A stretch of 64,000 nucleotides of DNA from a virus (Duplodnaviria; Caudoviricetes). Each line of letters starts with the position of its first letter. The stretch's first letter is position 1. The DNA is taken from IMG/VR virus record IMGVR_UViG_3300027730_000005. The stretch is one strand, 5' to 3'. The position numbers and the translations under genes were made by a program. The notes under the pieces are model-generated. The model made no database searches. It worked only from the letters and a program-made list of their open reading frames with translations, and was not told the DNA's origin. Positions 34,391-57,876 of this stretch are shown one piece after another.

Positions 34391-35035
34391 TTATGCCATC
34401 TGCGTGGAAGGAGACAATGCTGCGGCCAGGGCCATACGTTTTTGTCTATGTGCGCCCGAACTTCGTTCATAGTATTGATCTACAATAGCAGCAGCATCTT
34501 CTGCTGTTTTTGCACTCTTCAATCTTTGCCCTGCGTTTGCTTCCTTGTTGTTCAATTCGTACTGTACAAACTCTAATTGGTCTTGTAAGCTAGAATCTTG
34601 TAATGGTTTACGCATTGCATTAGCAAAATCTTGTTGTCGTGATCCGCGCCATTGTGCAATACCATATGCTTTCTCGCCGGGATTCCATGCAGCAGGATTG
34701 AGATTTTGACCTGATTCTGCTTGTAGGTTGGCCACTAGTCCAGCAGCTTGTTCAGGTGACCATCCTTGTTGCATAAAGTAGTCTAGAGCAATTTTTGCAT
34801 TGCCTGCTGTGCCACCACCTGCTCTATTAGATGGTCCAGACATACCAGATCCAGGCAAACGTATTCGAGATCCAGGCTGAATATCATTAGCACTAGCAAA
34901 CTGTGGATTTTGCCACATGATGCCATCTACTGTGGTATCGTAGGACTTTGCTATGTTCGGCAAGGAATCTCCAGATCTCACAGTATAGATATTGTTAGAG
35001 CTAGTGGCTTCAGACAAGAAATCAAATAACTTCAT
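34391..35035 (-). CDS. LysM plus phage tail lysozyme-like muralytic protein with CTS-like start
   Basis: YTVRSGDSL LysM; AAGLVANLQAESG…YGIAQWRGSR. Confidence 0.8.
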   Translation of the reverse strand: MKLFDFLSEATSSNNIYTVRSGDSLPNIAKSYDTTVDGIMWQNPQFASANDIQPGSRIRLPGSGMSGPSNRAGGGTAGNAKIALDYFMQQGWSPEQAAGLVANLQAESGQNLNPAAWNPGEKAYGIAQWRGSRQQDFANAMRKPLQDSSLQDQLEFVQYELNNKEANAGQRLKSAKTAEDAAAIVDQYYERSSGAHRQKRMALAAALSPSTQMA

Positions 35036-35036
35036 A

Positions 35037-35999
35037 TTACCCTTTTAACATGGTAGACATGCGACGCATTTGATCCACGCTGTATTCAAAATTTGATTGT
35101 TTACTAGTGCTTTCTTGAAGTTTTGCCGGTGCTGTGCCGCCTGCTGGTATACCTAATTTTGCTCTACCTTGATCAATTACAGAAGGCTGTGTTGCTATTC
35201 TTTGACTAACTGACTGATTAGTTGGATTTGCTGGTGCCGCTGGTTTTGTTGGAGTAGCAGCCTGACCCGTCATATTAGCGGGCGGCGCCTTGGCGTAGCT
35301 GCTACGCTCTTGAGCCGAGGCTGGTCCTCTGAGGTTAGCTGCAGGGCCGCCAGGTTTTTGTGCAGACAAAATAGCGCCTGCTGTGGTAGGCCCAATAATA
35401 CCGTCAGCCGTTAAACCGTTAGCTGTTTGAAATTTCTTAATAGCATCAACATTTGGTTTATTATTCGTTAATAGTCCCATTCTAGATGCATACGCAGCGA
35501 TTGCAGGGGACATTGATTTATTAGCAGCTGGCTTAGCTGGACTTGCTGCTTGTGTAGGTGCTGCTGGTGTAGATGCGGCAGCATTGACTGCCGCTGCTTG
35601 TCCCATACTCATATCTGTAGCACTTGCAGCAGTATCGGCAGCATTGACTGCCGCTGCTTGTCCCATACTCATATCTGTAGCACTTGCAGCAGTATCGGCA
35701 GCATTGACTGCACCTGCTTGTCCCATACTCATATCTGTAGCACCTGCAACAGCGTCAGCCTTGTCAGCGGCAGCCTGTGCTGCTGCCTCTTCACCGGGAT
35801 TACCTACTCCAGTTGCAGAACTTGTTGCTGCTGGTTTACCTTTATTTGGTGCTCGCATGGCAATGTAAGGGTCATTGATGTCGGGTTTGCCGCCACCGCG
35901 GGTGTACCATGCTTGATCTTCTGGACTCATGGCTGCAAATTTGGCAGCATCGGCACCTTGGTACGGATTTGCTTCTCTTAAAAATTCTATTGATCTCAT
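35037..35999 (-). CDS. Ala-rich repeat protein with peptidoglycan-binding domain and CTS-like start
   Basis: MRSIEFLRE; AIKKFQTANGLTADGIIGPTT. Confidence 0.75.
   Translation of the reverse strand: MRSIEFLREANPYQGADAAKFAAMSPEDQAWYTRGGGKPDINDPYIAMRAPNKGKPAATSSATGVGNPGEEAAAQAAADKADAVAGATDMSMGQAGAVNAADTAASATDMSMGQAAAVNAADTAASATDMSMGQAAAVNAAASTPAAPTQAASPAKPAANKSMSPAIAAYASRMGLLTNNKPNVDAIKKFQTANGLTADGIIGPTTAGAILSAQKPGGPAANLRGPASAQERSSYAKAPPANMTGQAATPTKPAAPANPTNQSVSQRIATQPSVIDQGRAKLGIPAGGTAPAKLQESTSKQSNFEYSVDQMRRMSTMLKG
35581..35760. repeat. Three tandem 60-bp (20-aa) coding repeats
   Basis: Two identical copies plus one diverged copy (ATDMSMGQAxAVNAADTAAS). Confidence 0.92.
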
Positions 36000-36037
36000 G
36001 TGATATTCCTTTATGAATGACCTATGCTTTATTTATT

Positions 36038-36679
36038 CTATTTGCCCTGTGCTGCCAATCTTGCACCATTGTTAAAACTGTTGCTGTGACTGGCAGCATT
36101 TCTGTTGCCACGTGCTTTTGACCATGCATAACCAGCTCTGTGCCCAGAACAATCTTTGGTGCAAGGCGACCCCAAAAATGATAATTCATCCAACTCTTGT
36201 TTTCCAGTGTATCGTTTAATTATGGACATTGATTCCTGATCATTCAACAGAGATGCTAATCCAGGATGTAGTGGGCGTGGCCAGTCGCCAAACTCTACCC
36301 ATTCAGATCCTTGAGTTTCCCAATTTAACATTGGTTTAAATTCGTGAGCTACTATGGCTAAAAAATTGTAGTATCTAAATCCCGACGGATGCCTGAACAC
36401 ATACAACGGGATCAGTTTAAGTGGGCCGTTATACCCTGCTTCTTCTTTGACTTCTCGTTTGACAGCATGTGCTGGATTTTCACCAGCGTCGATTGCACCG
36501 CCCCATGTTCCCCAGGTGTTAGGTTGCTCCACTTGTGATGATCTATGAGCTATACAAATCCGATTGGTATCGGCTGCCAGGAACAAACAACCAGCAGCTT
36601 GCTTGCCCCAGAATCCTGTTTTCTCCAAAGCATCACGATGTTCTTTATCTGACTCAGTCACAAATTCGGTTGCTCTCAT
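36038..36679 (-). CDS. NUDIX hydrolase with CTS-like start and small C-terminal module
   Basis: GGAIDAGENPAHAVKREVKEEAG Nudix box; MRATEFVTE; LDE/LSFLGSPC…. Confidence 0.8.
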   Translation of the reverse strand: MRATEFVTESDKEHRDALEKTGFWGKQAAGCLFLAADTNRICIAHRSSQVEQPNTWGTWGGAIDAGENPAHAVKREVKEEAGYNGPLKLIPLYVFRHPSGFRYYNFLAIVAHEFKPMLNWETQGSEWVEFGDWPRPLHPGLASLLNDQESMSIIKRYTGKQELDELSFLGSPCTKDCSGHRAGYAWSKARGNRNAASHSNSFNNGARLAAQGK

Positions 36680-37155
36680 TTGGCATCTCCAAAGATTGGT
36701 CCACCGACATACTGACCATTCTGACTTAACACACCATTGCGTAGATTGTTGATAATGTTATCAGTGATGTTTCTGCGACGGAAATGCGGCAAAAAAATAT
36801 GTGTTTCTACAGGACGATCGCCCTGCTCTGCTTGGATAGCATACATCCTGTGACGCCCGTCATGATCACGCACCTTGGCTTCTAAATTGAAATCATCGTT
36901 CTCCCAAGCTTCAGGAACTGCTATGGTTAAAAACGGTGCTCCAAACCCTTTATCATTGATCTGTCGGCGTAGATATTGTATAGTTTCTTTTTCGTCAGGA
37001 GAGTTAACATCCAAGGGCAAGCTGAGTTTGAGGAATGTGCTGGGTCGCATGACTGTGCGTAGACCAAAGTAATCTACATCAGCATTGTGCGGAACAGCAC
37101 CGAGACCTTGCCGATTGTCTATCTTTAGTTCCGTTATGAATTCCTTTGATCTCAT
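36676..37155 (-). CDS. ParB/Srx-like domain protein with CTS-like start
   Basis: MRSKEFITE; HDGRHRMYA. Confidence 0.55.
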   Translation of the reverse strand: MRSKEFITELKIDNRQGLGAVPHNADVDYFGLRTVMRPSTFLKLSLPLDVNSPDEKETIQYLRRQINDKGFGAPFLTIAVPEAWENDDFNLEAKVRDHDGRHRMYAIQAEQGDRPVETHIFLPHFRRRNITDNIINNLRNGVLSQNGQYVGGPIFGDAK

Positions 37156-37355
37156 GTGTCTATCCTGTGTACATTGGTCACTATGCTGTCTTTGCCGTAT
37201 TGAGCTTGCAGTAATAATCGAGCCATGGCAGGTGACTTGGCAAATATAGCCACATCTATACTGGTAGTATACGAAGGATTTTTGACCCGCACAGACGCAC
37301 TATACACATGAAATCCCGGAAGCAAGTCTTCACAGAGAAATTCTGTTGCTCTCAT
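37152..37355 (-). CDS. Small protein with CTS-like start
   Basis: MRATEFLCE. Confidence 0.65.
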   Translation of the reverse strand: MRATEFLCEDLLPGFHVYSASVRVKNPSYTTSIDVAIFAKSPAMARLLLQAQYGKDSIVTNVHRIDT

Positions 37356-39064
37356 CAGCAGTTCCACTTTCTCAACGCTAATGCTTTGCGTGTGGGTTTG
37401 CCATTGGGTTTTTTCATTGGCCCTTTGACTCCGCCCATCCTGGCACAGAATGATTTACGACGCTTGGCTGCTTTTGATCCTGGCTTGAGTTTGCTGGGCT
37501 TGGTAGTAACTGCCATTTGTAATTTTGAGCCTGGATTCTCTCTACGATAGCTAGCAACACCTTTGGCATTGAGACCGCCCTTTTTGCTCTTACCTGCGCT
37601 TCTACGCCAAGCTGCTGTTTCAAGAATGATTTCTTCATCGGTGAAGAAGTTGAATATGTCTTCAGTAAGACCACGATCAGCCATGGCCTGTTCAAAGTCA
37701 TCAAATATTGCATGGGCTTGTTCTAGGCTGTATACGCTTTCTGTTACACCTTCCTCTACACCCGACTGCATCTGTTGTTTGACTGCACGAGCAACATCTC
37801 CCGCCAATGCGCCAGGGTCATTATCGCCACCGTAGTTGAGCACACTCATGATTGCATTGTGAATCACACGGTCATCTGCACGACGAGCCATATTGGGATA
37901 CATGCGCTCAAACTCAGCATACACTTGATCAGCTAGGTCATCGTATTCACCGTTGAAGCCTTCATCCAGGCCATCTGCTTGTACAGCCCCTTCGCCGTCG
38001 GCATCAAAAGCTACCATTTCTACTTTGGGCCACATACGTGCAGGCACATACAGAATACCCGAAGTTTCGTCATGATCGATCTGGTCGCCAAAGCGAGCCA
38101 TTACTGCATTATATGCCCGTTCACTGTTAACGCTAAAACCCACAGTGTCCGTATCGTCAATACCGCTGTATCCGCCTTCCGCCACACCTTGCTTCTTGAG
38201 AATATCCAGTGCGTGTTTTTCCATCTGTTTTTTGGTAATAGGTTTACCGGGTGCTTCCTTACCTTTGAAATAATCAGAACCTTTTTTATCTCTTGAACCA
38301 TAGGTGCTGTGACTTACTTTGCCATCACGACCGGGTTGTGGTGCTGATTTGTCCATTTCATTCAAGCCTTCCGCCACACCTTGCTCACTTGCTTTGGCTT
38401 TGGCTTCGGCCCTGGTACGACTGTATCCCCGTGCTGTTGCTTCTCGTTCTTGGTTAGGATATATAGATATTGCAAACATTTTTCCATCTTTAACAAAGTA
38501 CCAATCTGTTGGATCTAGATCGTGTCTTTCGTCATCACCGCGATTGAACGCTCCCCTTACTCCGCGGAAAGGCCTGCCTCTGCCTTCCGCCACACTTTCT
38601 TTTTTGGCAGTCTTTGCAGCATCTTTCCAGGCCTGTGCTGTGGGGGCCTTGGGGCTGTCGGCATCTCTACTGGTACCGGCCTTCTTGCGCTTGTTTACAT
38701 TGTAGTATAACCCTTTGTTCTCCTCTGAGATACTTTCGTTAGGCACACAGTTTCTTACCTGCTTGCCAGTCACAGCTGACTTTTTTGTGCCTTCTGCATG
38801 TTTTCCTGGCCAGCACTTGGTGTAACCATTGCTATCTTTCTGACCCTTTTTGATCTCCATGATATTGCCGTGTGTTTTGCACATACCACAGTCTTCACAC
38901 ACCATTTCCATCACAACACTTTCGTTGTGTTTCTTCTTGCCAGCACAATGAGCACGTTGCGAAAAGCCTTTTGGATGAGAGCAATTGATACTGCTTTTGT
39001 ATTTTTGACTCCAGCCTTCATCTAATTTTTTGATTTTTCCAGTTATAAATTCATTTGATTTCAT
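37355..39064 (-). CDS. Polyprotein of short modules separated by GVAE/G, LDE/G, ILE/T linkers; C-terminal DUF6321-like module
   Basis: Three nucleotide-level copies of the GVAEG repeat; C-terminal GGLNAKG…RRKSFCARM…WNC. Confidence 0.7.
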   Translation of the reverse strand: MKSNEFITGKIKKLDEGWSQKYKSSINCSHPKGFSQRAHCAGKKKHNESVVMEMVCEDCGMCKTHGNIMEIKKGQKDSNGYTKCWPGKHAEGTKKSAVTGKQVRNCVPNESISEENKGLYYNVNKRKKAGTSRDADSPKAPTAQAWKDAAKTAKKESVAEGRGRPFRGVRGAFNRGDDERHDLDPTDWYFVKDGKMFAISIYPNQEREATARGYSRTRAEAKAKASEQGVAEGLNEMDKSAPQPGRDGKVSHSTYGSRDKKGSDYFKGKEAPGKPITKKQMEKHALDILKKQGVAEGGYSGIDDTDTVGFSVNSERAYNAVMARFGDQIDHDETSGILYVPARMWPKVEMVAFDADGEGAVQADGLDEGFNGEYDDLADQVYAEFERMYPNMARRADDRVIHNAIMSVLNYGGDNDPGALAGDVARAVKQQMQSGVEEGVTESVYSLEQAHAIFDDFEQAMADRGLTEDIFNFFTDEEIILETAAWRRSAGKSKKGGLNAKGVASYRRENPGSKLQMAVTTKPSKLKPGSKAAKRRKSFCARMGGVKGPMKKPNGKPTRKALALRKWNC

Positions 39065-39088
39065 TTAGTTCACCTTTTTCTAACAGTT

Positions 39089-40174
39089 TCATTTGTTTTT
39101 TGCTCTTCCAGCTTTCATATTGGCCAACCAGTGTGCCATGCGTTGTTTTTCACCAGAACTGTTCTTGGCAGTTTTTCTCAAACTACTTACACTGGCTTTG
39201 GTATTTACTCCCACACGTTTGGCCAGACCCTTGCGTCCAGGATTACGGCCGTCAGCAAAGTTTTCGTCAACCGAAGACTCATTGGATGTTGCAACAGGTT
39301 GTTTGGCCTTGTAGATATCTTCCCATTTGTCTGAAATAGCATTCTTTAATTCCAGCGTGGATTTAAAATTATTGTCTTGCATATACTTAATTATCCACAC
39401 AGCACTAGCACGGTCTCCTGAATCAGGCTTGCGAGCATTGCTTAGATCCACGCTGAGATTTTGATCTTCTGATGGATTACCATAGTACCGCATGGTCTTT
39501 AACGCACGTTTTGCTCTATCACTTAGATGTGCTTCGTCGCTCTTGGTAATTAACTCAATCCAGGGCTTTACAAAGTCTGTGGGCTTGCGGGACGATCCAG
39601 CTGGTGTTGGTCCACGTAATACATCACGGGATTGGCCTGGTATCTGTGCTCGACGTTTGTTCAGCAATCGCCATGCTGCTTCGTCTGTGTAGAAAAACAC
39701 AGGTAAGCCTTGTTGCTTGGCTGTGATCAGGATCTGTCGTGTTTCTGGACTGCGATATTCATCTTGTTCTTTGAGCAACACATGAACTTCAGTCACAGGA
39801 GTGATTGGAATAGTGGGCTCTTTGCTAAACACACGGTCTTCTGCTTCTCTGGTTCTTGTACCATTGCTGTGTAACCATGCACGGTCCCAGTAGTCAATGG
39901 GTTTCACAATGTATCGAGAGTTAAACCAGTCACCATTGAGTTTGAACATCACAGCGCCTGATCCCACCCAGCGATGATAATCGCCAGTTATTGTTCGTGT
40001 CAAACTAAGAAAGTATGGATATCCAGCAGGAGCATACTGTTCTTCGCTGCGATTGCCGGTCACGCTGGCCAATTCAAAGTTGCCGGATTGCAGTATTCTT
40101 AACCCAGCTCTGATACTGGTGTAATGAAACAATACATCAGTTGCTCGTTCAATTAAAAATTCCGTTGCTCTCAT
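39089..40174 (-). CDS. ADP-ribosyltransferase-fold candidate with CTS-like start and basic C-terminal module
   Basis: MRATEFLIE; LFHYTS…YFLSLTR; VDE/NFADG…. Confidence 0.5.
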   Translation of the reverse strand: MRATEFLIERATDVLFHYTSIRAGLRILQSGNFELASVTGNRSEEQYAPAGYPYFLSLTRTITGDYHRWVGSGAVMFKLNGDWFNSRYIVKPIDYWDRAWLHSNGTRTREAEDRVFSKEPTIPITPVTEVHVLLKEQDEYRSPETRQILITAKQQGLPVFFYTDEAAWRLLNKRRAQIPGQSRDVLRGPTPAGSSRKPTDFVKPWIELITKSDEAHLSDRAKRALKTMRYYGNPSEDQNLSVDLSNARKPDSGDRASAVWIIKYMQDNNFKSTLELKNAISDKWEDIYKAKQPVATSNESSVDENFADGRNPGRKGLAKRVGVNTKASVSSLRKTAKNSSGEKQRMAHWLANMKAGRAKNK

Positions 40175-40539
40175 TATACATACCTTGCTAGTTCATCTTC
40201 ACCTAAATCTTGTATGCGATTGGGCGGGATTTTAGTTGTGGAGAAGTACCATCCGTGGTCATATGTCAATGGAATACCCGTCACATCAATTTGCAACAAT
40301 GTCAATGGATCATCGCTACCCTCTGACTTGGCGTACATCCATCCACCGACCATACTTAGTTCTCTTTGTAACTTGACCTTATCACCTTCGTCTACAACCA
40401 TAAATGCTTTGCCATCATACGGATCTAGCCCAGCATATAGAATTTCTTCTGCGTTTTCAGTACTGGTAATATGGTACGCAGTTTTAAACTCATGGTCATG
40501 ATGTGTCCTTGATTCAGTGACAAATTCAGTTGCTCTCAT
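40174..40539 (-). CDS. Small ADP-ribosyltransferase-fold candidate with CTS-like start
   Basis: MRATEFVTE; YHITSTEN..EIL..GLDP…LLQID…IPP..I. Confidence 0.5.
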   Translation of the reverse strand: MRATEFVTESRTHHDHEFKTAYHITSTENAEEILYAGLDPYDGKAFMVVDEGDKVKLQRELSMVGGWMYAKSEGSDDPLTLLQIDVTGIPLTYDHGWYFSTTKIPPNRIQDLGEDELARYV

Positions 40540-43500
40540 TTGGGTTCCCATTGCATACTTTTACTACCTTTAACAGTAGGAGTAAACCCTTGACCTCTGT
40601 AGAACTTGGTTAATTTACTTTGACTCACTTGTCCTTTGTCCCAAGGAAACAGTGTCAAGCTGATGCCATCTTCTCTTGCCATGGCTTGTAGTTCTTGCAT
40701 GGCACGTGACCCAACACCTTGACGTAGCGGATATGCTTGAATCCATTTGACTTCAACTGCGCCGCGCTTGCTAAAGCTAGGAACAAGTTCAAACATAGCA
40801 AACTGTTGGTCATCGCCTTTGCCCCAGACCATAACGTGATTGTTCTGCATGGTGTATGGATACTTTGCGTAGACTCGTTCAATCCATGCCTGTGCAGCAT
40901 CATTGTTGCCTAGTTTGATTCTTATTGGCTCTTCTTCTTCGGCTACATCTTTCATTAGATGTTTAGCATCGCCGGACTTCTTCCAAGCATCCCACATGGC
41001 CTTGCCAGGCGGCAATTGATTTCTACTTGGTACAATAGTGTTACCCAACATTCTCACATACGCATAGATGTTACGTGCTATACCGCGGCCTTGATATTCA
41101 AGTTTCAAGCTGGTAACTGCTGACACTAGACCATTTTTGCTGGGTCTAAATTTTGCAAGACCTATCTGTTGATAATTGTCGTCTAGCACTTTGACTTGAA
41201 AATATTCTTTACCATTTATTTCAATCCCAGTGGCACGATATGTCAGCCCATCAAAAATTTGGGTGTCGTTGAACGCTGGATTGAAAACATCTGGATTGAT
41301 AGTTTCATTTAAGTTGTTGGCCATTACTTGTGGTAAGAAACTGGCGGCAATGTGTTGGCAAGTGTTAAAAATGTCAGCATTATCAGTGACCTGCAGATTG
41401 AATGGATAGTCTGTGGTAGGATGCTGTGTGGGGTCTTGCCACCCAGCATAACATTTTTCAATACCAAAGTCAGCTAACAAATCAGTGCAACTCTCTCCAT
41501 ACCTCTCATCCATGTCATGCACACAAGGACTCAATGTAGTGACCATGATGGCATTGGGACCAATACGACCGTGACGTTTGAGATGCTGGTCTATGGCCAC
41601 TCGTTCAGCATGGCGTCGTGTTCCGTTGAGCCCAGGCAAGTTGATAGCATAAGTGTGATTGTTTTTGTTATCAATCAAACAAGCAGCCACACGTCCATAC
41701 TTTTCTGGATCAGTCTCATGACCACGATGTATCATGTTGATGCACTTTTTCAGCACATTATCTAGTTTACCAAGTTTTGTGATCTCTTGGCTTTCATCCA
41801 TATCTTCTTCACCAGGCTCGTCTAGGTCGTGTATGGGCAAGCCAAGGCGTTTGAGCTTGTGACTGTACATGTTTTCTAGCTCTTCGCTGCCAAACGCCAA
41901 CACAGTATGCGGCGGGCCTTGATTGTAATGAGACTTGTCGGCTTGATCAAGATCGCTAATGTCTTGTCCCAACTGATACCAATCTTGGGTGTCGCTCACA
42001 TCCACTTTGATTGTGCCAGCGGGCATTTTGGGAGGTGTTTCAGGACCAGTTGGTTTTTGATTGCCTAGAGCATCCAGGTCACGACGTAATCGTTGTTCTA
42101 ACACTGTGATGTTTTCTGACACTGATTGAGAACGTAGTCTCACTGAGAAGTTACTGGCATCCACTTCTGGATTTGCCTGCATTGCAGTAGCCACCCATTC
42201 TTGACCTCGACGCCAGGCTTCTGTTTGATTTGCTGCCTGTATTACAAATACTGGTTGATTGGAAGATCTATTGTATACTTCCCACTGTGTTTGTGCCATT
42301 GGGATATCTAATTCAACGTCTTCTACTCCTGGAATTGGGGTGGATGTGTATTGGTATTGTTGTTGGCTTGCTGCAACACCCATCTCTGGTACTACTGTAA
42401 CTCCAGCCTGCATACGCCCAGGATTACTACGCATCCAGTTTATGGCCACACGGTTGGCATCACTCTGTACATTGCCTACTCCCGAGAAGCGATGTATTTC
42501 TTGACCGTCCGGATTCAAGATCAACCAGTTGCCAGTGAATGTTTGCTGACCTTGACCCGGACGAGTTAAAGTTTGCGGTATGCCAACGTCAACAATGCCA
42601 CCTTGTGCTGCATCTGAATTATTGCCCTGGCGGGTACGAACACCGTACAATTCAGGAGCTTCGCCACGCATGCCTAACGCCAAACGTGCTTCTTGTTCAG
42701 CTTCGGGTCTACTGGTATTGCTCAACTCTCTCACAGTAGAGTTGTCGCTGATTCTATAGATTTCCCATGGACCTGGGCCAGTGGGCACCAAGTTGCGTGG
42801 CTGTCCTTCGCGTGGTACATTTTGTGTGCTAACGAATGCATTTGATGATCGCGCTGGCACTGTCGACGCCCGGAACAGGTGAGAACGGCCAGCGGTGTTG
42901 CCAAATATATCTGGTCTTGCTTCTCCAGCAGCTCTTATAGCGTTTAGCTCAGATGACGCACGAATTTGTATTTCTTGCCCAGGATTACCTTGTGGGCTTA
43001 CATACCAGATTGGTTGTTCAGTCTGTTGTGGTTCAATTTCACGCACTTCAATGTCAGTTATCATACGAGAATTTTGTTCACGACCTTGAGTTATGAACTG
43101 TTCAGCAGCCTCACGACTTGGGAATCTACGCAACACATTGTTGTCAGACTGGCCAGGAGCTCTAGCAAAGCGGTTCATGTCATTCATCCAAATGCCCCAG
43201 TTGCCTGTACTTGGTTGTGCGGCAGATTGTGGGCCAGGTTGTTGCTGATCACCACCACGGGCAACCACAGTGCCAGCACGATCAACTAAACTAAAGTCAT
43301 GTGGATTATTTTCCCCTGAAACAAACTGTCTAAACTTTTGTACAGCGTCTTCTTGACTTGATGCTGTGATCGATGATCTATTGTAACCGGCTCGAGCATC
43401 ATAAACGCTATAGGACAATGATGGCTTCGGATCCTGATATGGTCGTAGCGGTTTTGCCTGTAGAGTGTTCCGTGCGCTGGCCCAGTCTGGGTAGTTGCCT

Positions 43501-46500
43501 GGTTCTATAGCCTTGGCGATGGCTTCTTCCTTGCTAGAAGCAACAATTTCAATGCTGGCAAAATATCCAGGACGACTCACATCCCACCAATATTTTTGTC
43601 CCTTTGGTGTCTTGCCTTTGGCAAGATTACGGGCGAGATTCTGTTGCTCTAGTTCTTGAAAAGTTGCTTTTCTAAAGTCTTTGATGGCCTGTTGCGTTTC
43701 TTTGCTTAGTTTGTCGCCGACTTCTTTGCTATTGCCCTGCAACGATACCATGTACTTGGCAAACTCTTGAATCATATCACCATATTCGTCCTTGGTACCG
43801 TTAGGATTCAACAGTTTGTACAGCTTCTTGAGATATTCTTGGCGATACTTTTCAGGATCCATCGCAGCGTCCAGGGCCACAGTAAATCGTAATAGGGTAT
43901 CTTCAATCTTGCTGAAGTTTGAATCCAACCAGTCGCCACCCGGACTCCGGAATTCAATGTATCCTGTCTTGGTATTGATACTGGTATATTTTTCTGTAGT
44001 GCCTGTGTGAATGGCCTTGGTGGCAATGTCTTCCATGTGCTCACGCATCTTGTCCATGACCTGCGGAGCAATATCAGGATTGCGTTTCAGCATGGTTTTA
44101 ATTTTGCCAATTGCTGACTTGGCATAGTTATTGCCTGAACGTCCAAACAGTTCTAGCACATATTCATCGCCCATGAGCAGGGCCAGTTTGACATAGTCCA
44201 GTTTGTCAAGACTGTAGTTGGGTACTGAAATGTTGATATGCAAGCCAGTGCTGTCATTGGTATAGCAACCAGACTTGTCTGCCCAAGCCTTGACCTTGTT
44301 TAGATCTGAAATCATTTCATCTATGGGCATAGGCGGACTAACAAATTCTAAACCTTCGTCGCCAGGGTTGTCGCCTTCTAAACTGCCGTCAGGTTCCACA
44401 ACATAGGTACCTGCTTCACGACGGCCGCCATGGTAATTTCTACTGGCGTTCACAGGTTTACCCATGTAACTGGAGAATTCATCAGCCACTTGATCTATAT
44501 CCATGTCACCGTCGTTGCCCTCATTAGCGTCAGTGTAATAGGGCCATTCAATATCAAAGTTGCTTTCGATGTCACTCATGGTTTGATATTTGTCATCCAA
44601 GAAACTGCCTTCATCGTACTCGTCTCGTTGTTCTTCTGCAAACGCTTCAAATGCATCATTGAAGACACGGCCTTGATCTTCAAAAGCTTCCAGCACAAAC
44701 TGTTCTTGTAATTCATCAAGTCTGGCACTCAGCAGTTGAGAGAAGTCTTCGCTCTCTTGTGGCAAGTCAGGATTGGCATCCATGATTTCGTCACGAGCTT
44801 GTAGCATGGCTTCATCACGATCAAACAAGTCATTAACGTTGACAAAGTCACGCATGTAATCTACTCCATCGCGTGTCCAAGCTTCAGCAGTTTGTTCCTG
44901 CTGCCATTCCTCGTACTCGTTTTGTATTTCTTCCATTAGGTCATCTACTGCACGGCGTCCATTGTGGTCACCGTCATGGAAAAAGTCTCGAATGTCACTG
45001 AAGCTTCTGGTACGTTGATCCTGATCGTAGTCTGGTTCCCAGTCAGGTTCTTGTTCATCGACCCCAACATCGGGCACAATCATTTCAAATTCCATGCCTG
45101 CCTGTGCGCCTGTTTGTGCTGCTAACTGACGCAGATTGGTGCTGGTCATCTTGATTTCAAACAGATCTTTCTCTTTGAACTCTCGCAACATCTTGTTTAA
45201 ACCGGCTGTGAGTAATGCAGGATGACCTTGTGAATCTGTTTGTAATCCAAGTTTGTTGGCTTCCTTGCCCACAGCACCTGGACGCACATCTCGGGTCAAG
45301 GCCATGACAAATCTTGGATCGCGTGCCTGTGCCTTTGTGGGTATGTATCCTGACGCTTCTTCCAGTGTGACCCCATCAAACATTTCAGGCTGTTCTTCAG
45401 CCCACTGTCGCATGATACGGCCAGCCATGGCGTTGGCTTGGTCTTCCCAAGGGCTACCAGTTTCACCAGCATCTATAGGCAGGGGATTTCTTTCATCCTG
45501 CTGACGATGTGTCATCTCATGGGCCATGGTGCGAAGTATATCCAACACATGGCGTCCCGCGGTGGCCAAGATCAGTGTGTTGCTTTCTGGTTCGTATTGA
45601 CCAAAGCTACCGTTCTCTTGACTCCATTCTGGTGTTGTTTCCAAACGCAATCTAGGTGGATTCTCTAATTTAAGTTTATCTACACAACTGGCATAGAAAC
45701 GATGTAGGATCTTTTTCAAATGGTCAAGTTCTACACTTTCATCCACTTGTTCTGATTCAGTACCAGCAGGGTGATCTTGGCCAGCATACGCAGTACCTGG
45801 ATACCAGTAATCACGCATGCCGTAATTGACTTTCTTTCTGGCAGCAGGCTTACGATTTAAACTCAACTCACGATCTTGTATTGCTGTCTTGGCATCTTTT
45901 AATTTGCCAATGCAACCCATATTTCTCAACAATTTAAATGCAATGTTCTCGCAGCCAAACTCACCATTCTTTTCCAGGCCAGTTTGGCGCATTGTTTTGA
46001 TCTTGTCCCACAGCTGATTCACAGCATCTGCATTGCCGGACTTGATAGCTGAATGTATTCTGGCATCAAGATCAGCTGTTTTGTGTTGTACACAAGAGTC
46101 ATCTATGCTAGCACGACGGCGCTGTGGAACTTGTACCCAGTCACCATTCTTTACGCTGTAAATGCCTTGACTCACATGCTTTTGATCACTGGGCTGCACA
46201 TACAGTTCCACTGGAACGCCAGCAATCTTTATGTCATGCTCGGCATTATACTGATATTTTTTTGCATTGAACAGTTCTTGATACACAGGATCGTCAGGCA
46301 TGTCCACCACAAGGTGTAGATCAATGTCTGAATGGCGAGTATAAGAATAGGCAGCATTGCTACCTGATATGGTAATGTCCTGAATGTTGAGATCATCAAC
46401 ACCCAGGAATTCTTGAAAATTTGACGCAATTGCCAGCAACTTGTCACGCACATCAGGTAACAAGTGCTCGTCTGACCCCCACAAACGGGGGTTCAAACGT

Positions 46501-46556
46501 TGATGGAATTTTACAGCATCGGCGAGATTAAAGTTGTCAAGATCATGGAAATTCAT
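40536..46556 (-). CDS. 2006-aa polyvalent protein (Pol-beta NTase, zincin, amidoligase, repeats, deaminase, two GNATs)
   Basis: GSNA…SDIDLH; AHEMTH; EFEM/EPDGSL/LEFVSP/TGLH; HAE…LSPC…C; YQGRGIA; RQGVGS. Confidence 0.8.
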   Translation of the reverse strand: MNFHDLDNFNLADAVKFHQRLNPRLWGSDEHLLPDVRDKLLAIASNFQEFLGVDDLNIQDITISGSNAAYSYTRHSDIDLHLVVDMPDDPVYQELFNAKKYQYNAEHDIKIAGVPVELYVQPSDQKHVSQGIYSVKNGDWVQVPQRRRASIDDSCVQHKTADLDARIHSAIKSGNADAVNQLWDKIKTMRQTGLEKNGEFGCENIAFKLLRNMGCIGKLKDAKTAIQDRELSLNRKPAARKKVNYGMRDYWYPGTAYAGQDHPAGTESEQVDESVELDHLKKILHRFYASCVDKLKLENPPRLRLETTPEWSQENGSFGQYEPESNTLILATAGRHVLDILRTMAHEMTHRQQDERNPLPIDAGETGSPWEDQANAMAGRIMRQWAEEQPEMFDGVTLEEASGYIPTKAQARDPRFVMALTRDVRPGAVGKEANKLGLQTDSQGHPALLTAGLNKMLREFKEKDLFEIKMTSTNLRQLAAQTGAQAGMEFEMIVPDVGVDEQEPDWEPDYDQDQRTRSFSDIRDFFHDGDHNGRRAVDDLMEEIQNEYEEWQQEQTAEAWTRDGVDYMRDFVNVNDLFDRDEAMLQARDEIMDANPDLPQESEDFSQLLSARLDELQEQFVLEAFEDQGRVFNDAFEAFAEEQRDEYDEGSFLDDKYQTMSDIESNFDIEWPYYTDANEGNDGDMDIDQVADEFSSYMGKPVNASRNYHGGRREAGTYVVEPDGSLEGDNPGDEGLEFVSPPMPIDEMISDLNKVKAWADKSGCYTNDSTGLHINISVPNYSLDKLDYVKLALLMGDEYVLELFGRSGNNYAKSAIGKIKTMLKRNPDIAPQVMDKMREHMEDIATKAIHTGTTEKYTSINTKTGYIEFRSPGGDWLDSNFSKIEDTLLRFTVALDAAMDPEKYRQEYLKKLYKLLNPNGTKDEYGDMIQEFAKYMVSLQGNSKEVGDKLSKETQQAIKDFRKATFQELEQQNLARNLAKGKTPKGQKYWWDVSRPGYFASIEIVASSKEEAIAKAIEPGNYPDWASARNTLQAKPLRPYQDPKPSLSYSVYDARAGYNRSSITASSQEDAVQKFRQFVSGENNPHDFSLVDRAGTVVARGGDQQQPGPQSAAQPSTGNWGIWMNDMNRFARAPGQSDNNVLRRFPSREAAEQFITQGREQNSRMITDIEVREIEPQQTEQPIWYVSPQGNPGQEIQIRASSELNAIRAAGEARPDIFGNTAGRSHLFRASTVPARSSNAFVSTQNVPREGQPRNLVPTGPGPWEIYRISDNSTVRELSNTSRPEAEQEARLALGMRGEAPELYGVRTRQGNNSDAAQGGIVDVGIPQTLTRPGQGQQTFTGNWLILNPDGQEIHRFSGVGNVQSDANRVAINWMRSNPGRMQAGVTVVPEMGVAASQQQYQYTSTPIPGVEDVELDIPMAQTQWEVYNRSSNQPVFVIQAANQTEAWRRGQEWVATAMQANPEVDASNFSVRLRSQSVSENITVLEQRLRRDLDALGNQKPTGPETPPKMPAGTIKVDVSDTQDWYQLGQDISDLDQADKSHYNQGPPHTVLAFGSEELENMYSHKLKRLGLPIHDLDEPGEEDMDESQEITKLGKLDNVLKKCINMIHRGHETDPEKYGRVAACLIDNKNNHTYAINLPGLNGTRRHAERVAIDQHLKRHGRIGPNAIMVTTLSPCVHDMDERYGESCTDLLADFGIEKCYAGWQDPTQHPTTDYPFNLQVTDNADIFNTCQHIAASFLPQVMANNLNETINPDVFNPAFNDTQIFDGLTYRATGIEINGKEYFQVKVLDDNYQQIGLAKFRPSKNGLVSAVTSLKLEYQGRGIARNIYAYVRMLGNTIVPSRNQLPPGKAMWDAWKKSGDAKHLMKDVAEEEEPIRIKLGNNDAAQAWIERVYAKYPYTMQNNHVMVWGKGDDQQFAMFELVPSFSKRGAVEVKWIQAYPLRQGVGSRAMQELQAMAREDGISLTLFPWDKGQVSQSKLTKFYRGQGFTPTVKGSKSMQWEPK

Positions 46557-46569
46557 GATCTATTTATCG

Positions 46570-47496
46570 CTATTCAGCAGTAGTGGTTTCCTCTGACACC
46601 TGTTTGTTGGTAGCAATCACTGTGGCTTCAACTGGTGTAGCGGCTGCTGTTAACTCACTTTCCGTGGGCTGTTGTTGGATCACGATCTGTGGCTGATTGG
46701 CTTGATTGGTCAGGGCAATTTGATGCAGATCTGCATACAGCTTGTCCTGGGTTTGGTAATCAAACACATAAGTTCCAGTATGTTTCAACAGCACACGTTT
46801 GTCCACAAATACTTGTCCGCCGATATCACGCCAGTTTTCGCAAAATGTCCAGTCTTCACTGTAGTAACGATTTTCACGCACAGCAGTGTCAAAGTATGTT
46901 TTCATGTAAGGGTTTAATGCTGGATCAAGTCCAATGTCGTTGATAAACGGCTTCACCGCAGGATGTGCATTGAGTTTTTCAAACACATCACGTTTGATCA
47001 ACAAGAAACCAGTACCAGTCTTGGTGACTTCAATCAAGCCAGATGGATCATTTTGATCTGCACCGGGAATACCGTTGACACACCATTTGACTGGTAGTGA
47101 TTTCATTGGATACAATCCGCCTACTACATCTTTGTCATGATTCAACATGACCAGCAAGTGCCAGGGCTCCCAACCAATGTCAGCATCAATGAACATCAAG
47201 TGTGTTGATCCTTCTGTGTTTAAGAATTTAGCAGTAAGAGTGTTTCTAGCACGAGAAATCAATGATTCATTGGTCATTGTTTCCACGGTCCAGTCCAAGC
47301 CCAATTGACGTGCTATGTTGGCCCACTTGATATAACTCATGAATGTGCTTTCAGTGAGTTGTCCACCATAACAAGGCATAGAAATATGCACTCTTGTGGT
47401 TTTTAAGTAGTCAATGTTAACTTGGATGCTTTGTTGCCCACCAGTTTGATCCACTGGGGATGCATTCTGGTAAGGTAATTGTTGTTCGTCTGCCAT
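46570..47496 (-). CDS. GT-A fold glycosyltransferase-like protein
   Basis: ISMPCYGG, ESLISRARN, LMFIDADIGW, YSEDWTFC. Confidence 0.7.
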   Translation of the reverse strand: MADEQQLPYQNASPVDQTGGQQSIQVNIDYLKTTRVHISMPCYGGQLTESTFMSYIKWANIARQLGLDWTVETMTNESLISRARNTLTAKFLNTEGSTHLMFIDADIGWEPWHLLVMLNHDKDVVGGLYPMKSLPVKWCVNGIPGADQNDPSGLIEVTKTGTGFLLIKRDVFEKLNAHPAVKPFINDIGLDPALNPYMKTYFDTAVRENRYYSEDWTFCENWRDIGGQVFVDKRVLLKHTGTYVFDYQTQDKLYADLHQIALTNQANQPQIVIQQQPTESELTAAATPVEATVIATNKQVSEETTTAE

Positions 47497-47552: not shown

Positions 47553-48245
47553 CTACGACCTAGCTTCGTCCAAATAATCTTCAACCATGGGCTGATTGTA
47601 CTTGCTTTGATAGCTGGCCCGCATGCCGCCTTGGCTCATTTGACGTGTGACTTGTTCTGCAACTTCAGTGCCCATAACAGTATCCAACATCCGGACCACT
47701 GTGTTGGCCAGCTGGGGATTGCCTTGTGTTGTGGGATAAAGGCTCATGACCAATGCAGTTCGTTGGCGTTGATTTAAATCAGGCCATGCTGTGCGTATTT
47801 GTGTGGCCGATGTCATACCTGGACCAAACTCCACAACGGGCAAGTAGGTCATGTATGCGTGTTGAGTCATGGGCGCCATGTTGTCACTGATGGGTTGCAG
47901 ATATGCCGGTGTACCGTCACGTTTCACACCACCCGGCTGCGGAGGCTTGTTGGCGTCTTTTTCACTGCGCACAAAGATCAACTGTGTGTCTGCAGGGTTA
48001 TAGTTTTTTGTTATTTCTTCTGCACGAAATGGACTCTTCACTTGATAGAAATCACCTGGAGAAACTCCAGCCAATTGTGCTAGTTTTTCTTTTAATTTAA
48101 AAGGAAACGGGCGTGTTGAAGTGTCGTTGGTTGCAGCCACTTTGACATCAGCATTGGGAAATGCTCGTTGAGCAGATTTGTACAGTTCTAAATGGCCGGG
48201 GTGAAAAGGGTGTGCGCCCATTGGTAATACTACTAAAGTTTTCAT
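47553..48245 (-). CDS. HIGH-family nucleotidyltransferase (cytidylyltransferase-like)
   Basis: GAHPFHPGH, MTSATQIR. Confidence 0.65.
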   Translation of the reverse strand: MKTLVVLPMGAHPFHPGHLELYKSAQRAFPNADVKVAATNDTSTRPFPFKLKEKLAQLAGVSPGDFYQVKSPFRAEEITKNYNPADTQLIFVRSEKDANKPPQPGGVKRDGTPAYLQPISDNMAPMTQHAYMTYLPVVEFGPGMTSATQIRTAWPDLNQRQRTALVMSLYPTTQGNPQLANTVVRMLDTVMGTEVAEQVTRQMSQGGMRASYQSKYNQPMVEDYLDEARS

Positions 48246-48250
48246 GCACG

Positions 48251-48262
48251 TATTTATAAATA
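48251..48262. promoter_or_regulatory. Palindrome TATTTATAAATA giving back-to-back T4-like late promoters
   Basis: TATAAATA on both strands between divergent genes. Confidence 0.7.
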
Positions 48263-49385: not shown

Positions 49386-49549
49386 TATGCTCGTTCCACT
49401 TCCACAACAACACCGGGACCAGCCAGTTCTTCAGCAACTGATGCCAGTGCAGACAGCACATCGTCAGTGGCCACTGTATCTGGAGTGGTATCGTCTTTGA
49501 CCAATTTTGATAGCTTGATCACAACTATTTCTTCGTAAATTTTTGCCAT
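49385..49549 (-). CDS. 54-aa hypothetical protein
   Basis: MAKIYEEIVVIKLSKLVKD…; ATG 4 nt after ATAAATA. Confidence 0.6.
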   Translation of the reverse strand: MAKIYEEIVVIKLSKLVKDDTTPDTVATDDVLSALASVAEELAGPGVVVEVERA

Positions 49550-49556
49550 ACTGTAT

Positions 49557-50249
49557 TTATGGTCGTTTTTGCACTTGTACGGTTTTACGAGTTAGCCCAG
49601 GGCATAGCATTGCCAGCATGGTAATATGCTTGAGATCATTGTGTTCTACAAAATAATGTTCCCGGCTCCATGATGAATGCGGTTTTGTTCTACCCCATCG
49701 GTAACCTTGTAGTATAGTATCAGTGAACCATTTTTCAGTAACAGGACTGGCCACGAGATCTGGAGCCTGATGGCTGATCCAATTCCACACTGCTTGTTTT
49801 TTATCTGTGGACAGCTTCTTTTCTTTAAGATAAGTTCTGTAAGGATATTTGGGTTGATTGTTTAACATGACAACATCCCTGGAATACGCAAGTACTGCTT
49901 GTTTCATAGTGGATTTTGTTGGATAATTCCTGTACATTGTCTCAACGTCTTTGATGTCATTGGTGTACACATGAAATCTATTTTGCCCATAGGTGCGATG
50001 AATGTATGCACTGCGAAGATTTTCTAATACGTCCACTGCATGCATTATGTTTTGTTTGGTCAATTCGTCAGTCACTGGGTGTCCAACTGACAAATTATAT
50101 TGATCACGTCTATGTAACCGTTCCAGGATCTTTGTGAGAGAAAGATTGTTCAACAGCCACGCACCATCAATATCAAAACTTATTGCATATTCATACTTTC
50201 CAAAATAAAGTGATCCGCGTGGGTCACACTGTAAATAGGGTAGTGACAT
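49557..50249 (-). CDS. Hypothetical protein
   Basis: 230-aa ORF. Confidence 0.7.
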   Translation of the reverse strand: MSLPYLQCDPRGSLYFGKYEYAISFDIDGAWLLNNLSLTKILERLHRRDQYNLSVGHPVTDELTKQNIMHAVDVLENLRSAYIHRTYGQNRFHVYTNDIKDVETMYRNYPTKSTMKQAVLAYSRDVVMLNNQPKYPYRTYLKEKKLSTDKKQAVWNWISHQAPDLVASPVTEKWFTDTILQGYRWGRTKPHSSWSREHYFVEHNDLKHITMLAMLCPGLTRKTVQVQKRP

Positions 50250-52491
50250 GCTGTGGTTCCTTTAGTTCAAATACAATCTTGTTGTCTTGCAATTCTACAT
50301 TCAATGAACAGTCAGTCAATTGTTCAAACAAAATGCGTCGACTCAATGGTACACGAATCAATTCATCAATTTTGCGATTCAACGGACGAGCACCCATTTT
50401 GCTGTCGTAGCCTTTTTCTGCCAACAACTCAATCACTTCTTCAGAGAAAAACAACCGGATATTCTTTTCTGCTACACTTGATTTAAGCTGATCCAAGAAC
50501 TTCACAACAATCTTCTTGATAGCCAGGGTATCCAACTTGGTAAACTTGCAAATTTTATCAATACGATTGCGTAGCTCTGGGCGGAAGAACTCTTTCATTG
50601 CACGATCTTCTTCTCCAGATTTTTCCAAATCAGTACTGAATCCAATGTTGTTGGTTTCATTGTCTCTGGCACCTAAGTTAGATGTCATGATGATAATGGT
50701 ATTTTTGCAGTCTACCCGTTTGCCGTTTGCACCTGTTACATGTCCTTCGTCTAGCATTTGCAGCAGGATATTAGTAACATCCGAATGTGCTTTTTCAATT
50801 TCATCAAACAAGATCACAGAGAATGGATGTTTACTCAGATCTGAAATTAGTTTACCACCGCCTACATTACCATCTTCAAATCCCACATAGCCTGGAGGTG
50901 CACCAATCAAACTGCTGACAGAGAACTTCTCTTGAAACTCACTCATGTCATAACGTAACAAGTGCATGTCCAAGTTTTCACTCAATAGCTTGGCCAATTC
51001 AGTTTTGCCTGTACCAGTTGGACCCAAGAACAAGAAACTTGCCATGGGCTTGCCTTGTGTGCCAATTCCTGAGAAGTTGATATACACACGTTCTAGTACT
51101 GAATCCACAGCTTCTTCTTGTCCGTAGAGTTTTTGTTTGATGTTACTTTCTAAATCCACAATCTTCAAACTGCGTTCATTTTGCAGTCTATCAGTGGGTA
51201 CACCAGTCACTCTTGCCACTTGTTCTTCGATCATGCTTTTATTAACAGTGACCTGGCCTGCATCCCGAACACGTTCTCTAGCACAGGCAGCATCCAGCAA
51301 ATCGATACTTTTGTCTGGATTCTTCTTGTCATGAATATAACGAGCAGCAAGATCCACAGCAGCAGTCATGGCTTCTGTGTCAATCAGTACATTGTGGAAT
51401 GTTTCCAAACGTGGGCTCAGTCCAATTAGAATTTTTTCTGTAGTGTCACGATCAGGTTCATCAATGCTGAGACGATAGAACCGACGCATGAGTGCTCGAT
51501 CTTTCTCAAATGATTCGTAGTATTCTTCCCAAGTTGTGCTGGCAATAACTTTCAAATGCCCTTTGGTAATTGCTGGTTTCAACATGTTGGCAAAGTCCAA
51601 GCTGCCCGAACTGCCTGCTCCTGCACCTTTCATGGTATGTGCTTCGTCCACGAACAAAATACACTTCTTCTTGGCTTCCAGTGCAGCAATCACTGCTTTA
51701 AACTTTTCTTCAAAGTCCCCGCGATATTTGGATCCTGCTACCAAACTGCCAATTTCAAGACTCCACACTTCGTGATCTTTGAGGAACTTGGGCACACGAT
51801 TTTGTGCAATTTCCTGCGCAAGTCCTTCGATGATGGCAGTTTTGCCCACACCTGGATCACCTACCATGAGTACATTGGCTTTGAAACGACGTGCTAGTAC
51901 AGCAATCATTTCGTCCAGTTCTGTCGAGCGGCCAATTAACGGCTCTAATTGATCAGCAGCAGCCATGGCACTCAGACTGGTACAATATTCTTCCAGCACT
52001 TCAGTAGCTTGTTGACTATTCATACCTGCGGCTGCACGTTCTGACTTGTAGTTCTTGGTCCAAAAATCCACAAATTCAGCTTTGTGTACGCCGTATTTCA
52101 GCAAGAAGTAGTGTGCATTGCTGTTGGTCTCGCCCATGATGGCCAAGTACAAGTCCACAGTGACCACTTGTCTACGTCCTGTAAACAACACCTGTGTTAG
52201 AGCACGATTAAACACTCGTTCTAATGAAGCGGTTTTGCGTGGAGTCAAATCTTCCCCAGCACGAATCAGACTTTGTAGGCTTTCTAAATAGCCACACAGT
52301 TCAGTTTCCAACATGACCACGTCACAGCCATATTTGGATAAAGTTTTTCTAAATGGATCATGTCTTACGAGACTCAACAGTAAATGTTCTGTTAGCACAT
52401 ATTCGTGTTGCCATGTACGTGCGATTTGCACTGCGCCTTCGATGATAGCGTCAATTTCGGGATTGTCTTGGATTTGATTTGAATTGCTCAT
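50224..52491 (-). CDS. clpA: ClpA-like Hsp100 AAA+ ATPase
   Basis: Clp N-domain, GDPGVGKT, FVDEAH, GPTGTGKT, FDEIEKAH, IGF loop; no ClpB middle domain. Confidence 0.88.
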   Translation of the reverse strand: MSNSNQIQDNPEIDAIIEGAVQIARTWQHEYVLTEHLLLSLVRHDPFRKTLSKYGCDVVMLETELCGYLESLQSLIRAGEDLTPRKTASLERVFNRALTQVLFTGRRQVVTVDLYLAIMGETNSNAHYFLLKYGVHKAEFVDFWTKNYKSERAAAGMNSQQATEVLEEYCTSLSAMAAADQLEPLIGRSTELDEMIAVLARRFKANVLMVGDPGVGKTAIIEGLAQEIAQNRVPKFLKDHEVWSLEIGSLVAGSKYRGDFEEKFKAVIAALEAKKKCILFVDEAHTMKGAGAGSSGSLDFANMLKPAITKGHLKVIASTTWEEYYESFEKDRALMRRFYRLSIDEPDRDTTEKILIGLSPRLETFHNVLIDTEAMTAAVDLAARYIHDKKNPDKSIDLLDAACARERVRDAGQVTVNKSMIEEQVARVTGVPTDRLQNERSLKIVDLESNIKQKLYGQEEAVDSVLERVYINFSGIGTQGKPMASFLFLGPTGTGKTELAKLLSENLDMHLLRYDMSEFQEKFSVSSLIGAPPGYVGFEDGNVGGGKLISDLSKHPFSVILFDEIEKAHSDVTNILLQMLDEGHVTGANGKRVDCKNTIIIMTSNLGARDNETNNIGFSTDLEKSGEEDRAMKEFFRPELRNRIDKICKFTKLDTLAIKKIVVKFLDQLKSSVAEKNIRLFFSEEVIELLAEKGYDSKMGARPLNRKIDELIRVPLSRRILFEQLTDCSLNVELQDNKIVFELKEPQHVTTLFTV

Positions 52492-55548: not shown

Positions 55549-55572
55549 GCAGATATTTATCTGCAAATGGTA

Positions 55573-57711: not shown

Positions 57712-57876
57712 ACAGATATTTATGGCAAGAGACTAGAACCTGTGCGCTTTGATTTTTTCCGCACAGAGAAATACTTATGCCGCAAATCTCTGAAATCTCG
57801 GTACATAGATCTCACACTACAAACACCTAAATATTCGTGCTAAACACAATTAGCAAACACTTTAGGAGAACCACAC

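Follow-up and report, generated by a model that had tools for sequence, protein, structure and literature searches.

A 2006-residue multi-enzyme protein of a T4-like jumbo phage is probably a capsid-cargo polyprotein with head-protease sites at its module junctions

Bacteriophage T4 loads its internal proteins IPI-III and Alt into the prohead core, releases them by cuts after Leu/Ile-x-Glu and ejects them together with its DNA. The T4 prohead protease gp21, which cuts after L/I-x-E, removes the leaders of such proteins and trims Alt at both ends (PMC9026906), and the T4 capsid-targeting sequence (CTS) reads MKTYQEFIAE (PMC8442874). A second line of work has described polyvalent proteins, in which two to fifteen domains of disparate biochemical activity are joined in one polypeptide (Iyer, Burroughs, Anand, de Souza, Aravind 2017, PMC5512222), and which are predicted to be delivered with the DNA. 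The stretch analysed here (the window; 64,000 nucleotides of IMG/VR virus record IMGVR_UViG_3300027730_000005) encodes a 2006-aa protein with features of both systems. In a T4-like jumbo phage, this gene probably specifies a capsid-cargo polyprotein that is made late and would be cut at the junctions between its modules by a gp21-type head protease; loading, release and ejection of the kind known from T4 are here what we infer. Literature searches turned up no account of enzyme polyproteins delimited by head-protease sites in T4-like phages.

The protein is read from an uninterrupted minus-strand open reading frame (ORF) at 40536-46556 with an ATG start, as had been stated in a preliminary description made from the sequence alone. 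The order of domains given there, from a Pol-beta nucleotidyltransferase (NTase) through an HExxH zincin, a short module, an amidoligase with an acidic insert, aromatic repeats and a zinc deaminase to two GNAT domains, was also borne out by hidden Markov models (HMMs) and two AlphaFold models, from which the domain identities were taken; conservation in the N-terminal part was read over 111 sequences. With six enzyme folds and three non-enzyme modules, this phage-encoded chain resembles the polyvalent proteins in combining unrelated enzyme domains, a zincin and GNATs among them, in a single polypeptide of a mobile element. It differs from them in having a head-protease motif at the boundaries, swappable with capsid-targeting leaders, whereas Iyer 2017 proposes self-processing by the zincin. 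The same study never mentions an amidoligase and refers to a deaminase only as a fold comparison, and a 2021 survey of jumbo phages added nothing on the polyprotein family. Compared with T4, where each cargo is a single protein with one N-terminal leader, up to nine modules per chain are found here, with internal sites and no cleavable leader; at the sequence level, the T4 hallmark of Leu/Ile-x-Glu at product boundaries is seen at seven junction sites. The giant phages phiKZ, 201phi2-1 and SPN3US provide a further parallel, since they pack many ejection and inner-body proteins that are cut after Glu in a short motif by the gp21-related gp175/gp245, but they belong to another lineage, and what is cut there, at one or a few sites, are for the most part paralogous structural proteins rather than strings of enzymes.

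All seven x-x-E sites named in the preliminary description are present, at residues 273, 400, 467, 1481, 1588, 1751 and 1873. In the two AlphaFold models, segments with a predicted local distance difference test (pLDDT) score below 50 span residues 232-274, 394-467, 1478-1482, 1581-1588, 1746-1750 and 1869-1883, and the next confident fold starts about 11 residues or less downstream of each site. Because every one of the seven lies in or beside such a low-confidence segment, the linkers do not fall inside folded domains; linkers located within folds would have refuted the processed-polyprotein reading.

The junctions also coincide with the points at which modules are exchanged in evolution. 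BLAST alignments to 119 relatives break at 273-275, 398-402, 459-467, 1481, 1579-1588, 1745-1756 and 1873, and relatives insert extra modules of 100-250 aa, exchange modules or end at the junction positions. When the module to the left of a boundary is swapped, the residues before it still read Leu/Ile/Val/Met/Phe-x-Glu (Phi-x-E), and of the distinct swapped contexts, 45 of 46 keep Glu as the P1 residue for site 400, 43 of 43 for site 467 and 22 of 24 for site 1588. Over the N-terminal alignment, E467 and a Leu, Ile or Val at 465 are found in 111 of 111 sequences, with Phe, Ser, Gly, Leu or Pro at P2, while E400 is kept in 109 and Leu, Val or Ile at 398 in 102 of the 111. Near-invariant P1 and P3 residues around a variable P2 are what the specificity of a protease would produce, and fit less well with microhomology of the DNA. 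Of 3114 alignment ends in the whole family, 1041 fall between -1 and +3 of the Glu of a Phi-x-E motif, where 254 would be expected, and they peak sharply at 0 to +2, although these are related sequences and the counts are not independent. The earlier claim that domain boundaries coincide with protease-like sites is thus upheld, both by the linker positions and by the retention of Phi-x-E through module swaps. FKE462 was considered as an additional site and rejected, as position 462 is Asp or Glu in relatives.

A link between junctions and leaders was found among smaller proteins. An exhaustive HMMER search with residues 986-2006 matched 1309 proteins, and in many smaller ones modules 7, 8 and 9 are located either internally after Phi-x-E or directly behind a leader of the form MRAxEF[VIL]xE or MLIRDLIE. 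The first module residue behind the leader is the same as the first residue after the internal junction, as illustrated by the pairs MRAQEFVTE/DDSPTRLKLGNNNA and ...KDVAE/EEEPIRIKLGNNDA, MKAKEFVTE/TINPDCFNPAFNDT and ...NNLNE/TINPDVFNPAFNDT, and MRATEFITE/SQEIHN and ...EDMDE/SQEITK (the slash marks the boundary). For module 8, a motif-ending leader was present in all eight N-terminal cases and the motif preceded 20 of 23 internal cases; the corresponding counts were 25 of 35 and 36 of 48 for module 9, and 5 of 11 and 18 of 22 for module 7. Judged by sequence comparison, this equivalence of leader and junction sites is the strongest of four independent lines of evidence on the junctions. In one relative (L008 16113-16517), module 9 is a separate gene of 134 aa, beginning MRANEFLIE/ENKNDAAQAWIEK, close downstream of a polyprotein gene of 1753 aa; here nature itself has split, or joined, the chain at the junction.

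Evidence from virions is available for one homologue. The protein AUZ94978.1 of Agrobacterium phage Atu_ph07 matches the amidoligase module (30% identity, E 2e-30); its first 13 residues, MRWQDISSKKLTE, form a leader ending in L-T-E and align with the pre-junction sequence ...REFKEKDLFE, and its post-leader sequence LKMNSSTL aligns with IKMTSTNL, which follows LFE467. AUZ94978.1 is Atu_ph07 gp196, because it is encoded two genes before the portal gp198 (AUZ94980) and has a computed mass of 57.93 kDa, and gp196 is listed among the Atu_ph07 virion proteins detected by mass spectrometry (MS), with 14 unique peptides and 30.2% coverage (Attai et al. 2018, Table S5, PMC6102473). The homologue shares the amidoligase with its helical insert and the aligned start, but it is a stand-alone protein of 500 aa, whose termini were not mapped in the virion MS. 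Its gene (L020 1120-2622) belongs to a cultured phage of 490 kb, and the product is an unannotated 'hypothetical protein' that the published paper does not name.

A protease of the T4 type is encoded in a close relative. For the window, phage affiliation is given by a family B DNA polymerase and further PHROG matches, and relatives are located on IMG/VR contigs, the longest of 262 kb, with genes for gp21 and gp23. Relative G003 is closely syntenic: its polyprotein is 69% identical over the N-terminal half, the flanking genes are the same, and it encodes, in T4 order, a Peptidase_S77 (9e-26), a scaffold resembling gp22 and a capsid protein resembling gp23 (2.8e-99). The source phage is a giant uncultured T4-like lake phage.

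Several observations weigh against a head-protease-processed cargo. The motif [LIVMFA]-x-E occurs 46 times in the protein, no more often than chance gives; what exceeds chance is the placement of the seven sites and their conservation across module swaps. About half of the breakpoints in the family lie away from any motif, and the 1751 junction reads D, Q or another residue in some relatives. The polyprotein does not possess the approximately 10-residue N-terminal CTS ending in a cut site that typifies T4 cargo: an x-x-E cut site is absent from its start, MNFHDLDNFNLAD, and the NTase module has MNFHDLDN as its conserved beginning, found also in shorter relatives that consist of NTase, zincin and peptide. 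Lacking an N-terminal leader, the precursor would therefore need an internal targeting element in order to enter the prohead. The stand-alone NTase and zincin homologues of cyanophages are leaderless as well; the idea that modules 1 and 2 are invariably cargo was dropped on account of the stand-alone zincin of cyanophage S-SRM01, which has no leader. The gp21-type protease is known from relative G003 only; searches of the partial records G001, G002 and G004 gave neither Peptidase_S77 nor Gp23, but these are fragments and hence not evidence of absence. The processed-polyprotein reading put forward in the preliminary description is supported by structure prediction, by strong comparative evidence and by the one homologue in virions, whereas the cleavage and packaging of this particular protein, its ejection and all substrates are what we infer.

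Three other explanations were weighed against this evidence. The protein may remain uncleaved, with the tripeptides being linker or leader remnants of gene fusion or tolerated recombination points in an intact multi-enzyme, packaged or not. The modules have clearly been fused and split in evolution, x-x-E is frequent owing to acidic linkers, and the DNA of junction MDE1588/S (41791-41808) agrees with that of junction VDE273/S (45736-45753) at 15 of 18 nt, both encoding E-D/Q-M/V-D-E-S. This is the sole direct repeat in the gene that joins two junctions, and it may reflect chance or a microhomology used for module exchange. However, the near-invariant Glu at P1 and Leu, Ile or Val at P3, next to a P2 and flanks that vary freely, imply selection on the motif, and the motif goes with the tail of the preceding module even at the end of a protein (DVAE followed by four residues and the stop), much like the C-terminal gp21 site of T4 Alt. 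An uncleaved protein is hence considered unlikely. Cleavage could also be the work of the protein's own zincin (residues 274-400), acting on the junctions in cis or in trans, before or after delivery, with the head protease uninvolved. In favour of this, and so against cleavage by a head protease, is the presence of the zincin in every one of the 119 close relatives, the invariance of its HExxH and E371, its resemblance in fold to the proteases Wss1, SPRTN and the minigluzincins, and the zincin processing that forms a theme in polyvalent proteins (Iyer 2017, PMC5512222). Self-processing nevertheless seems quite unlikely: many single-module proteins and neighbouring genes lack a zincin and yet have the Phi-x-E boundary behind their leaders, and the junction motif is the documented motif of T4 gp21 (PMC9026906). 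Moreover, the nuclease YbeY is among the best fold matches of the zincin, so its protease activity is not certain.

Finally, the protein could be a cytoplasmic multi-enzyme for nucleotide or DNA-modification metabolism that is never packaged and acts on phage DNA precursors, next to the deazaguanine genes of the window. The leaderless NTase and zincin homologues of cyanophages do lie among replication genes, and the deaminase is nearest to nucleotide and base deaminases. Against such a role, the polyprotein gene stands first in a conserved array of cargo genes with leaders, its modules can be exchanged with genes of that kind, and the amidoligase has a homologue that is present in virions and whose gene adjoins the portal gene, which makes a purely cytoplasmic function highly improbable. 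Capsid cargo cut by a gp21-type protease is the best-supported reading. The modules described below are all encoded on the minus strand.

Module 1 (aa 1-273; 45738-46556; PHROG 36119) consists of the Pol-beta NTase and a disordered tail ending in VDE273. The folded part (residues 10-231), which includes a helical second domain, was modelled with pLDDT 80-94 and matches PHROG 36119 at 3.6e-44, while the tail (232-274) stays below 50. The catalytic residues G65-S66, D77xD79 and E117 are invariant, so that the G-[GS] and D-x-D motifs and the third carboxylate of a Pol-beta NTase are found along with the fold. Its nearest folds in Foldseek are the adenylyltransferases AadA, ANT(9) and LinB, ranked above CD-NTases (probability 0.95 for AadA/ANT(9)), and comparison with a minimal NTase gave Z 7.2 (VIA, as for all Z scores below); the match to Pfam NTP_transf_2 scored 16.4, under the cut-off of 21. 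The modelled fold suggests nucleotidylation of a hydroxyl acceptor, as in ANT enzymes.

Module 2 (aa 274-400; 45357-45737), assigned by motif and fold, is an HExxH+E zincin metallopeptidase that ends in LEE400. The domain covers residues 275-393, and H346, E347 and H350 of H346ExxH350 are invariant together with the third ligand E371. Z scores of 8.2-9.2 over 274-403 were obtained with AQ_1354, SPRTN, Wss1 and selecase; abylysin was matched with a Foldseek probability of 0.99, minigluzincins and YbeY are also alike in fold, and the match to Pfam DUF6782 remained under the cut-off.

Module 3 (aa 401-467; 45156-45356), recognised by its conserved sequence, is a basic peptide of 67 aa (pI 9.6) ending in LFE467. 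It is predicted to be fully disordered (pLDDT 34-46) although its sequence is conserved, with SGYxP, D413, R415 and P426-G427 among the invariant residues. Junction sites flank it at both ends and it is always preceded by the zincin; short relatives of 450-1000 aa consist of NTase, zincin and module 3 peptide only. The peptide may be a targeting element or a substrate of the ligase.

Module 4 (aa 468-985; 43602-45155) is a glutamine-synthetase-like amidoligase with a helical acidic insert, identified through Pfam PF12224 and its fold. The amidoligase spans 468 to approximately 915 and scores 26.6 bits against Amidoligase_2 (PF12224), above the gathering cut-off of 22; its catalytic fold gave Z scores of 10-11.6 to glutamine synthetases and 7-8 to PafA/Dop. 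E489xE491, H773xN775 and E868xR870 are invariant, and the acidic insert (534-666) is confidently helical in the model. The relationship to glutamine synthetase, GCS2 and PafA suggests an ATP-dependent amide ligation, as far as the model can be taken to indicate.

Module 5 (aa 986-1481; 42114-43601) ends in VSE1481 and is built of seven beta-beta-alpha-beta repeats of about 50 aa, visible only in a MAFFT alignment of hand-cut units (A6). These divergent W-containing repeats (987-1476) each consist of a W-x-hydrophobic strand, a second strand, an S-x-x-E-A helix and a last strand, with W...ASSxEEA as signature, and repeat 7 was modelled as beta-beta-alpha-beta with pLDDT above 90. A self-BLAST of 986-1481 returned no repeat pairs, a family match for the repeats was found in neither Pfam, PDB sequences nor the ESM Atlas, and a repeat profile gave only chance matches to PDB sequences (E of at least 0.6). 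The repeat may resemble HicB-N-like domains. Many family members stop two residues past repeat six (...VVPEMG), and the part beyond this repeat therefore looks like a later fusion, as far as the alignments tell.

Module 6 (aa 1482-1588; 41793-42113), defined from the model, is a small alpha/beta module that ends in both LDE1580 and MDE1588. It was modelled with pLDDT 64-84 between linkers below 50 (1478-1482 and 1581-1588) and had no usable ESM Atlas match. The module is mobile in the family, being located between modules 3 and 4 in other relatives.

Module 7 (aa 1589-1751; 41304-41792) is a zinc deaminase ending in LNE1751, with H1649-A-E, C1678 and C1690 as its zinc and catalytic residues. 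The domain (1589-1745) matches Pfam PF00383 at 5.7e-10 with 39.4 bits against a cut-off of 25, and Z scores of 14-15 were obtained with TadA, guanosine deaminase and RibD, which places it closest to nucleotide and base deaminases. The H-x-E and PC...C motifs and the fold of CDA-type zinc deaminases are thus present, and HAE1651, C1678 and C1690 are kept in 47 relatives. The zinc cysteines are spaced PC-x11-C instead of the usual PCxxC, a spacing likewise kept in the 47 relatives. Base or nucleotide deamination is suggested by the structural comparison.

The two C-terminal modules were both assigned by structural match. Module 8 (aa 1752-1873; 40938-41303) is a GNAT-fold, acetyltransferase-like protein ending in VAE1873, whose fold (1755-1868) is similar to ESCO1, the ICL2 C-domain and Rv1916 (Z 9.2-9.7 over 1761-1873; ESCO1 9.7) and which had no Pfam match at E up to 1. 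Module 9 (aa 1874-2006; 40539-40937) is a probable small GNAT acetyltransferase (fold 1884-2006), the best match being AcrVA5 (6iuf; Z 10.4, rmsd 2.5 A, 92 of 95 residues aligned, 21% identity); its Pfam GNAT matches of 17-18 bits remained under the cut-off. AcrVA5 is an anti-CRISPR GNAT that acetylates Cas12a, and the two have in common that they are minimal GNATs of mobile elements, but the likeness is at fold level only, and other GNATs score Z of about 8. Acetyl-CoA motif A is found in both GNAT modules, with QGRGIA in module 8, and the models suggest acetylation of proteins or small molecules. For the C-terminal fragments, alignments A2, A3 and A4 were misaligned by MAFFT and discarded, while A5 was checked before folding.

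The family was delimited by a word-index search of metagenomic proteins, which yielded 1119 members of 1100-3500 aa (E <=0.001) on contigs of up to 364 kb. The N-terminal half (about 935 residues) is conserved among them and the C-terminal modules vary, the relatives carrying deaminase, GNATs, M23 peptidase, peptidoglycan (PG)-binding, SET and ParB domains. Among GenBank phage records, megablast gave zero DNA-level matches to the gene or to 20 kb of its flank, and tblastn found single-module matches but no full-length relative among phages; an NCBIfam search returned nothing useful.

An array of genes with MRAxEFxxE-type leaders, delimited by N-termini and gene calls, lies downstream (34391-40551, minus strand), and the polyprotein stop overlaps (ATGA) the start of a gene beginning MRATEFVTE. 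The six further downstream N-termini read MRATEFLIE, MKSNEFITG, MRSKEFITE, MRATEFVTE, MRSIEFLRE and MKLFDFLSE, and the MRAxEFxxE leaders of these neighbours are comparable to MKTYQEFIAE of T4. The domains encoded behind the leaders are unrelated to one another and include NUDIX, PG-binding and LysM-lysozyme domains. The gene order HxGH nucleotidyltransferase, PHROG 1574, polyprotein and leader-bearing genes is common to six related loci. The two genes that always stand before the polyprotein in relatives (46570-47496 and 47553-48245, minus strand) encode a protein of PHROG 1574, which weakly matches Anp1-like glycosyltransferases, and an HxGH cytidylyltransferase-like protein, whose length ranges from 230 to 540 aa among relatives. 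Farther upstream, at 50224-52491 and 52539-53321 on the minus strand, a ClpB/ClpA-like chaperone with two AAA+ domains (755 aa, PHROG 4871) is encoded beside a DnaJ homologue (260 aa), a pair kept upstream of the polyprotein gene in all relatives examined.

An ATAAATA late-promoter-like element (46561-46567, minus strand) is located 4 nt before the polyprotein ATG, in agreement with the preliminary description, and a TAAATA core was found 4-9 nt 5' of the ATG in the relatives (seven upstream regions read) with the exception of L009. ATAAATA-N4-5-ATG occurs at five minus-strand gene starts of the window (57711-57723, 55548-55560, 49549-49560, 48245-48257 and 46556-46567). These starts offer no room for a Shine-Dalgarno sequence, which suggests late-type promoters giving leaderless or nearly leaderless mRNAs, if the spacing is a guide. 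The head genes of relative G003 have ordinary AGGAG sites instead. The exact T4 late promoter TATAAATA showed no enrichment (3 copies against 2.6 expected).

Taken as a mechanism, a late-type promoter would drive the polyprotein gene together with the leader-bearing genes, and the 226-kDa precursor would be incorporated into the prohead core. A gp21-type head protease would then cut at 273, 400, 467, 1481, 1580/1588, 1751 and 1873, giving about eight products: the NTase (31 kDa), the zincin (15 kDa), the basic peptide (7 kDa), the amidoligase with the repeat array (114 kDa), module 6 (12 kDa), the deaminase (18 kDa) and two acetyltransferase-fold proteins (14 and 15 kDa). Ejected along with the DNA, these would reach their host targets within minutes of the start of infection and serve takeover or anti-defence. 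The leaderless precursor would have to be carried by an internal element, for which module 3 or the repeat array are speculative candidates. A wider proposal is offered tentatively and is perhaps doubtful: a combinatorial 'cargo cassette' system in the T4-like jumbo lineage, in which any module bounded by an MRAxEFxxE leader or by an internal Phi-x-E junction would enter the capsid and be released there by the head protease, fusion and fission of genes at these sites would be unrestricted, and module 3 or the repeats would serve as the internal element that carries the leaderless polyprotein.

If the junctions are real head-protease sites, the more than 1100 members of this family show whole enzyme toolkits being delivered from one precursor by T4-like jumbo phages, with nucleotidylation, deamination, amide ligation, acetylation and proteolysis as the activities, and the tools would be cassettes that move in evolution between polyproteins and single genes with leaders. 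The polyvalent proteins of Aravind and the T4 capsid-targeting/gp21 system of Black, so far separate ideas, would thereby be joined. A leader or a Phi-x-E boundary would then be a sequence rule by which the injected early effectors of uncultured phages could be listed, and such a list would be rich in candidates for anti-defence enzymes, the AcrVA5-like GNAT being one. For the engineering of T4 capsids, the polyproteins would also provide models from nature of large cargo with several enzymes.

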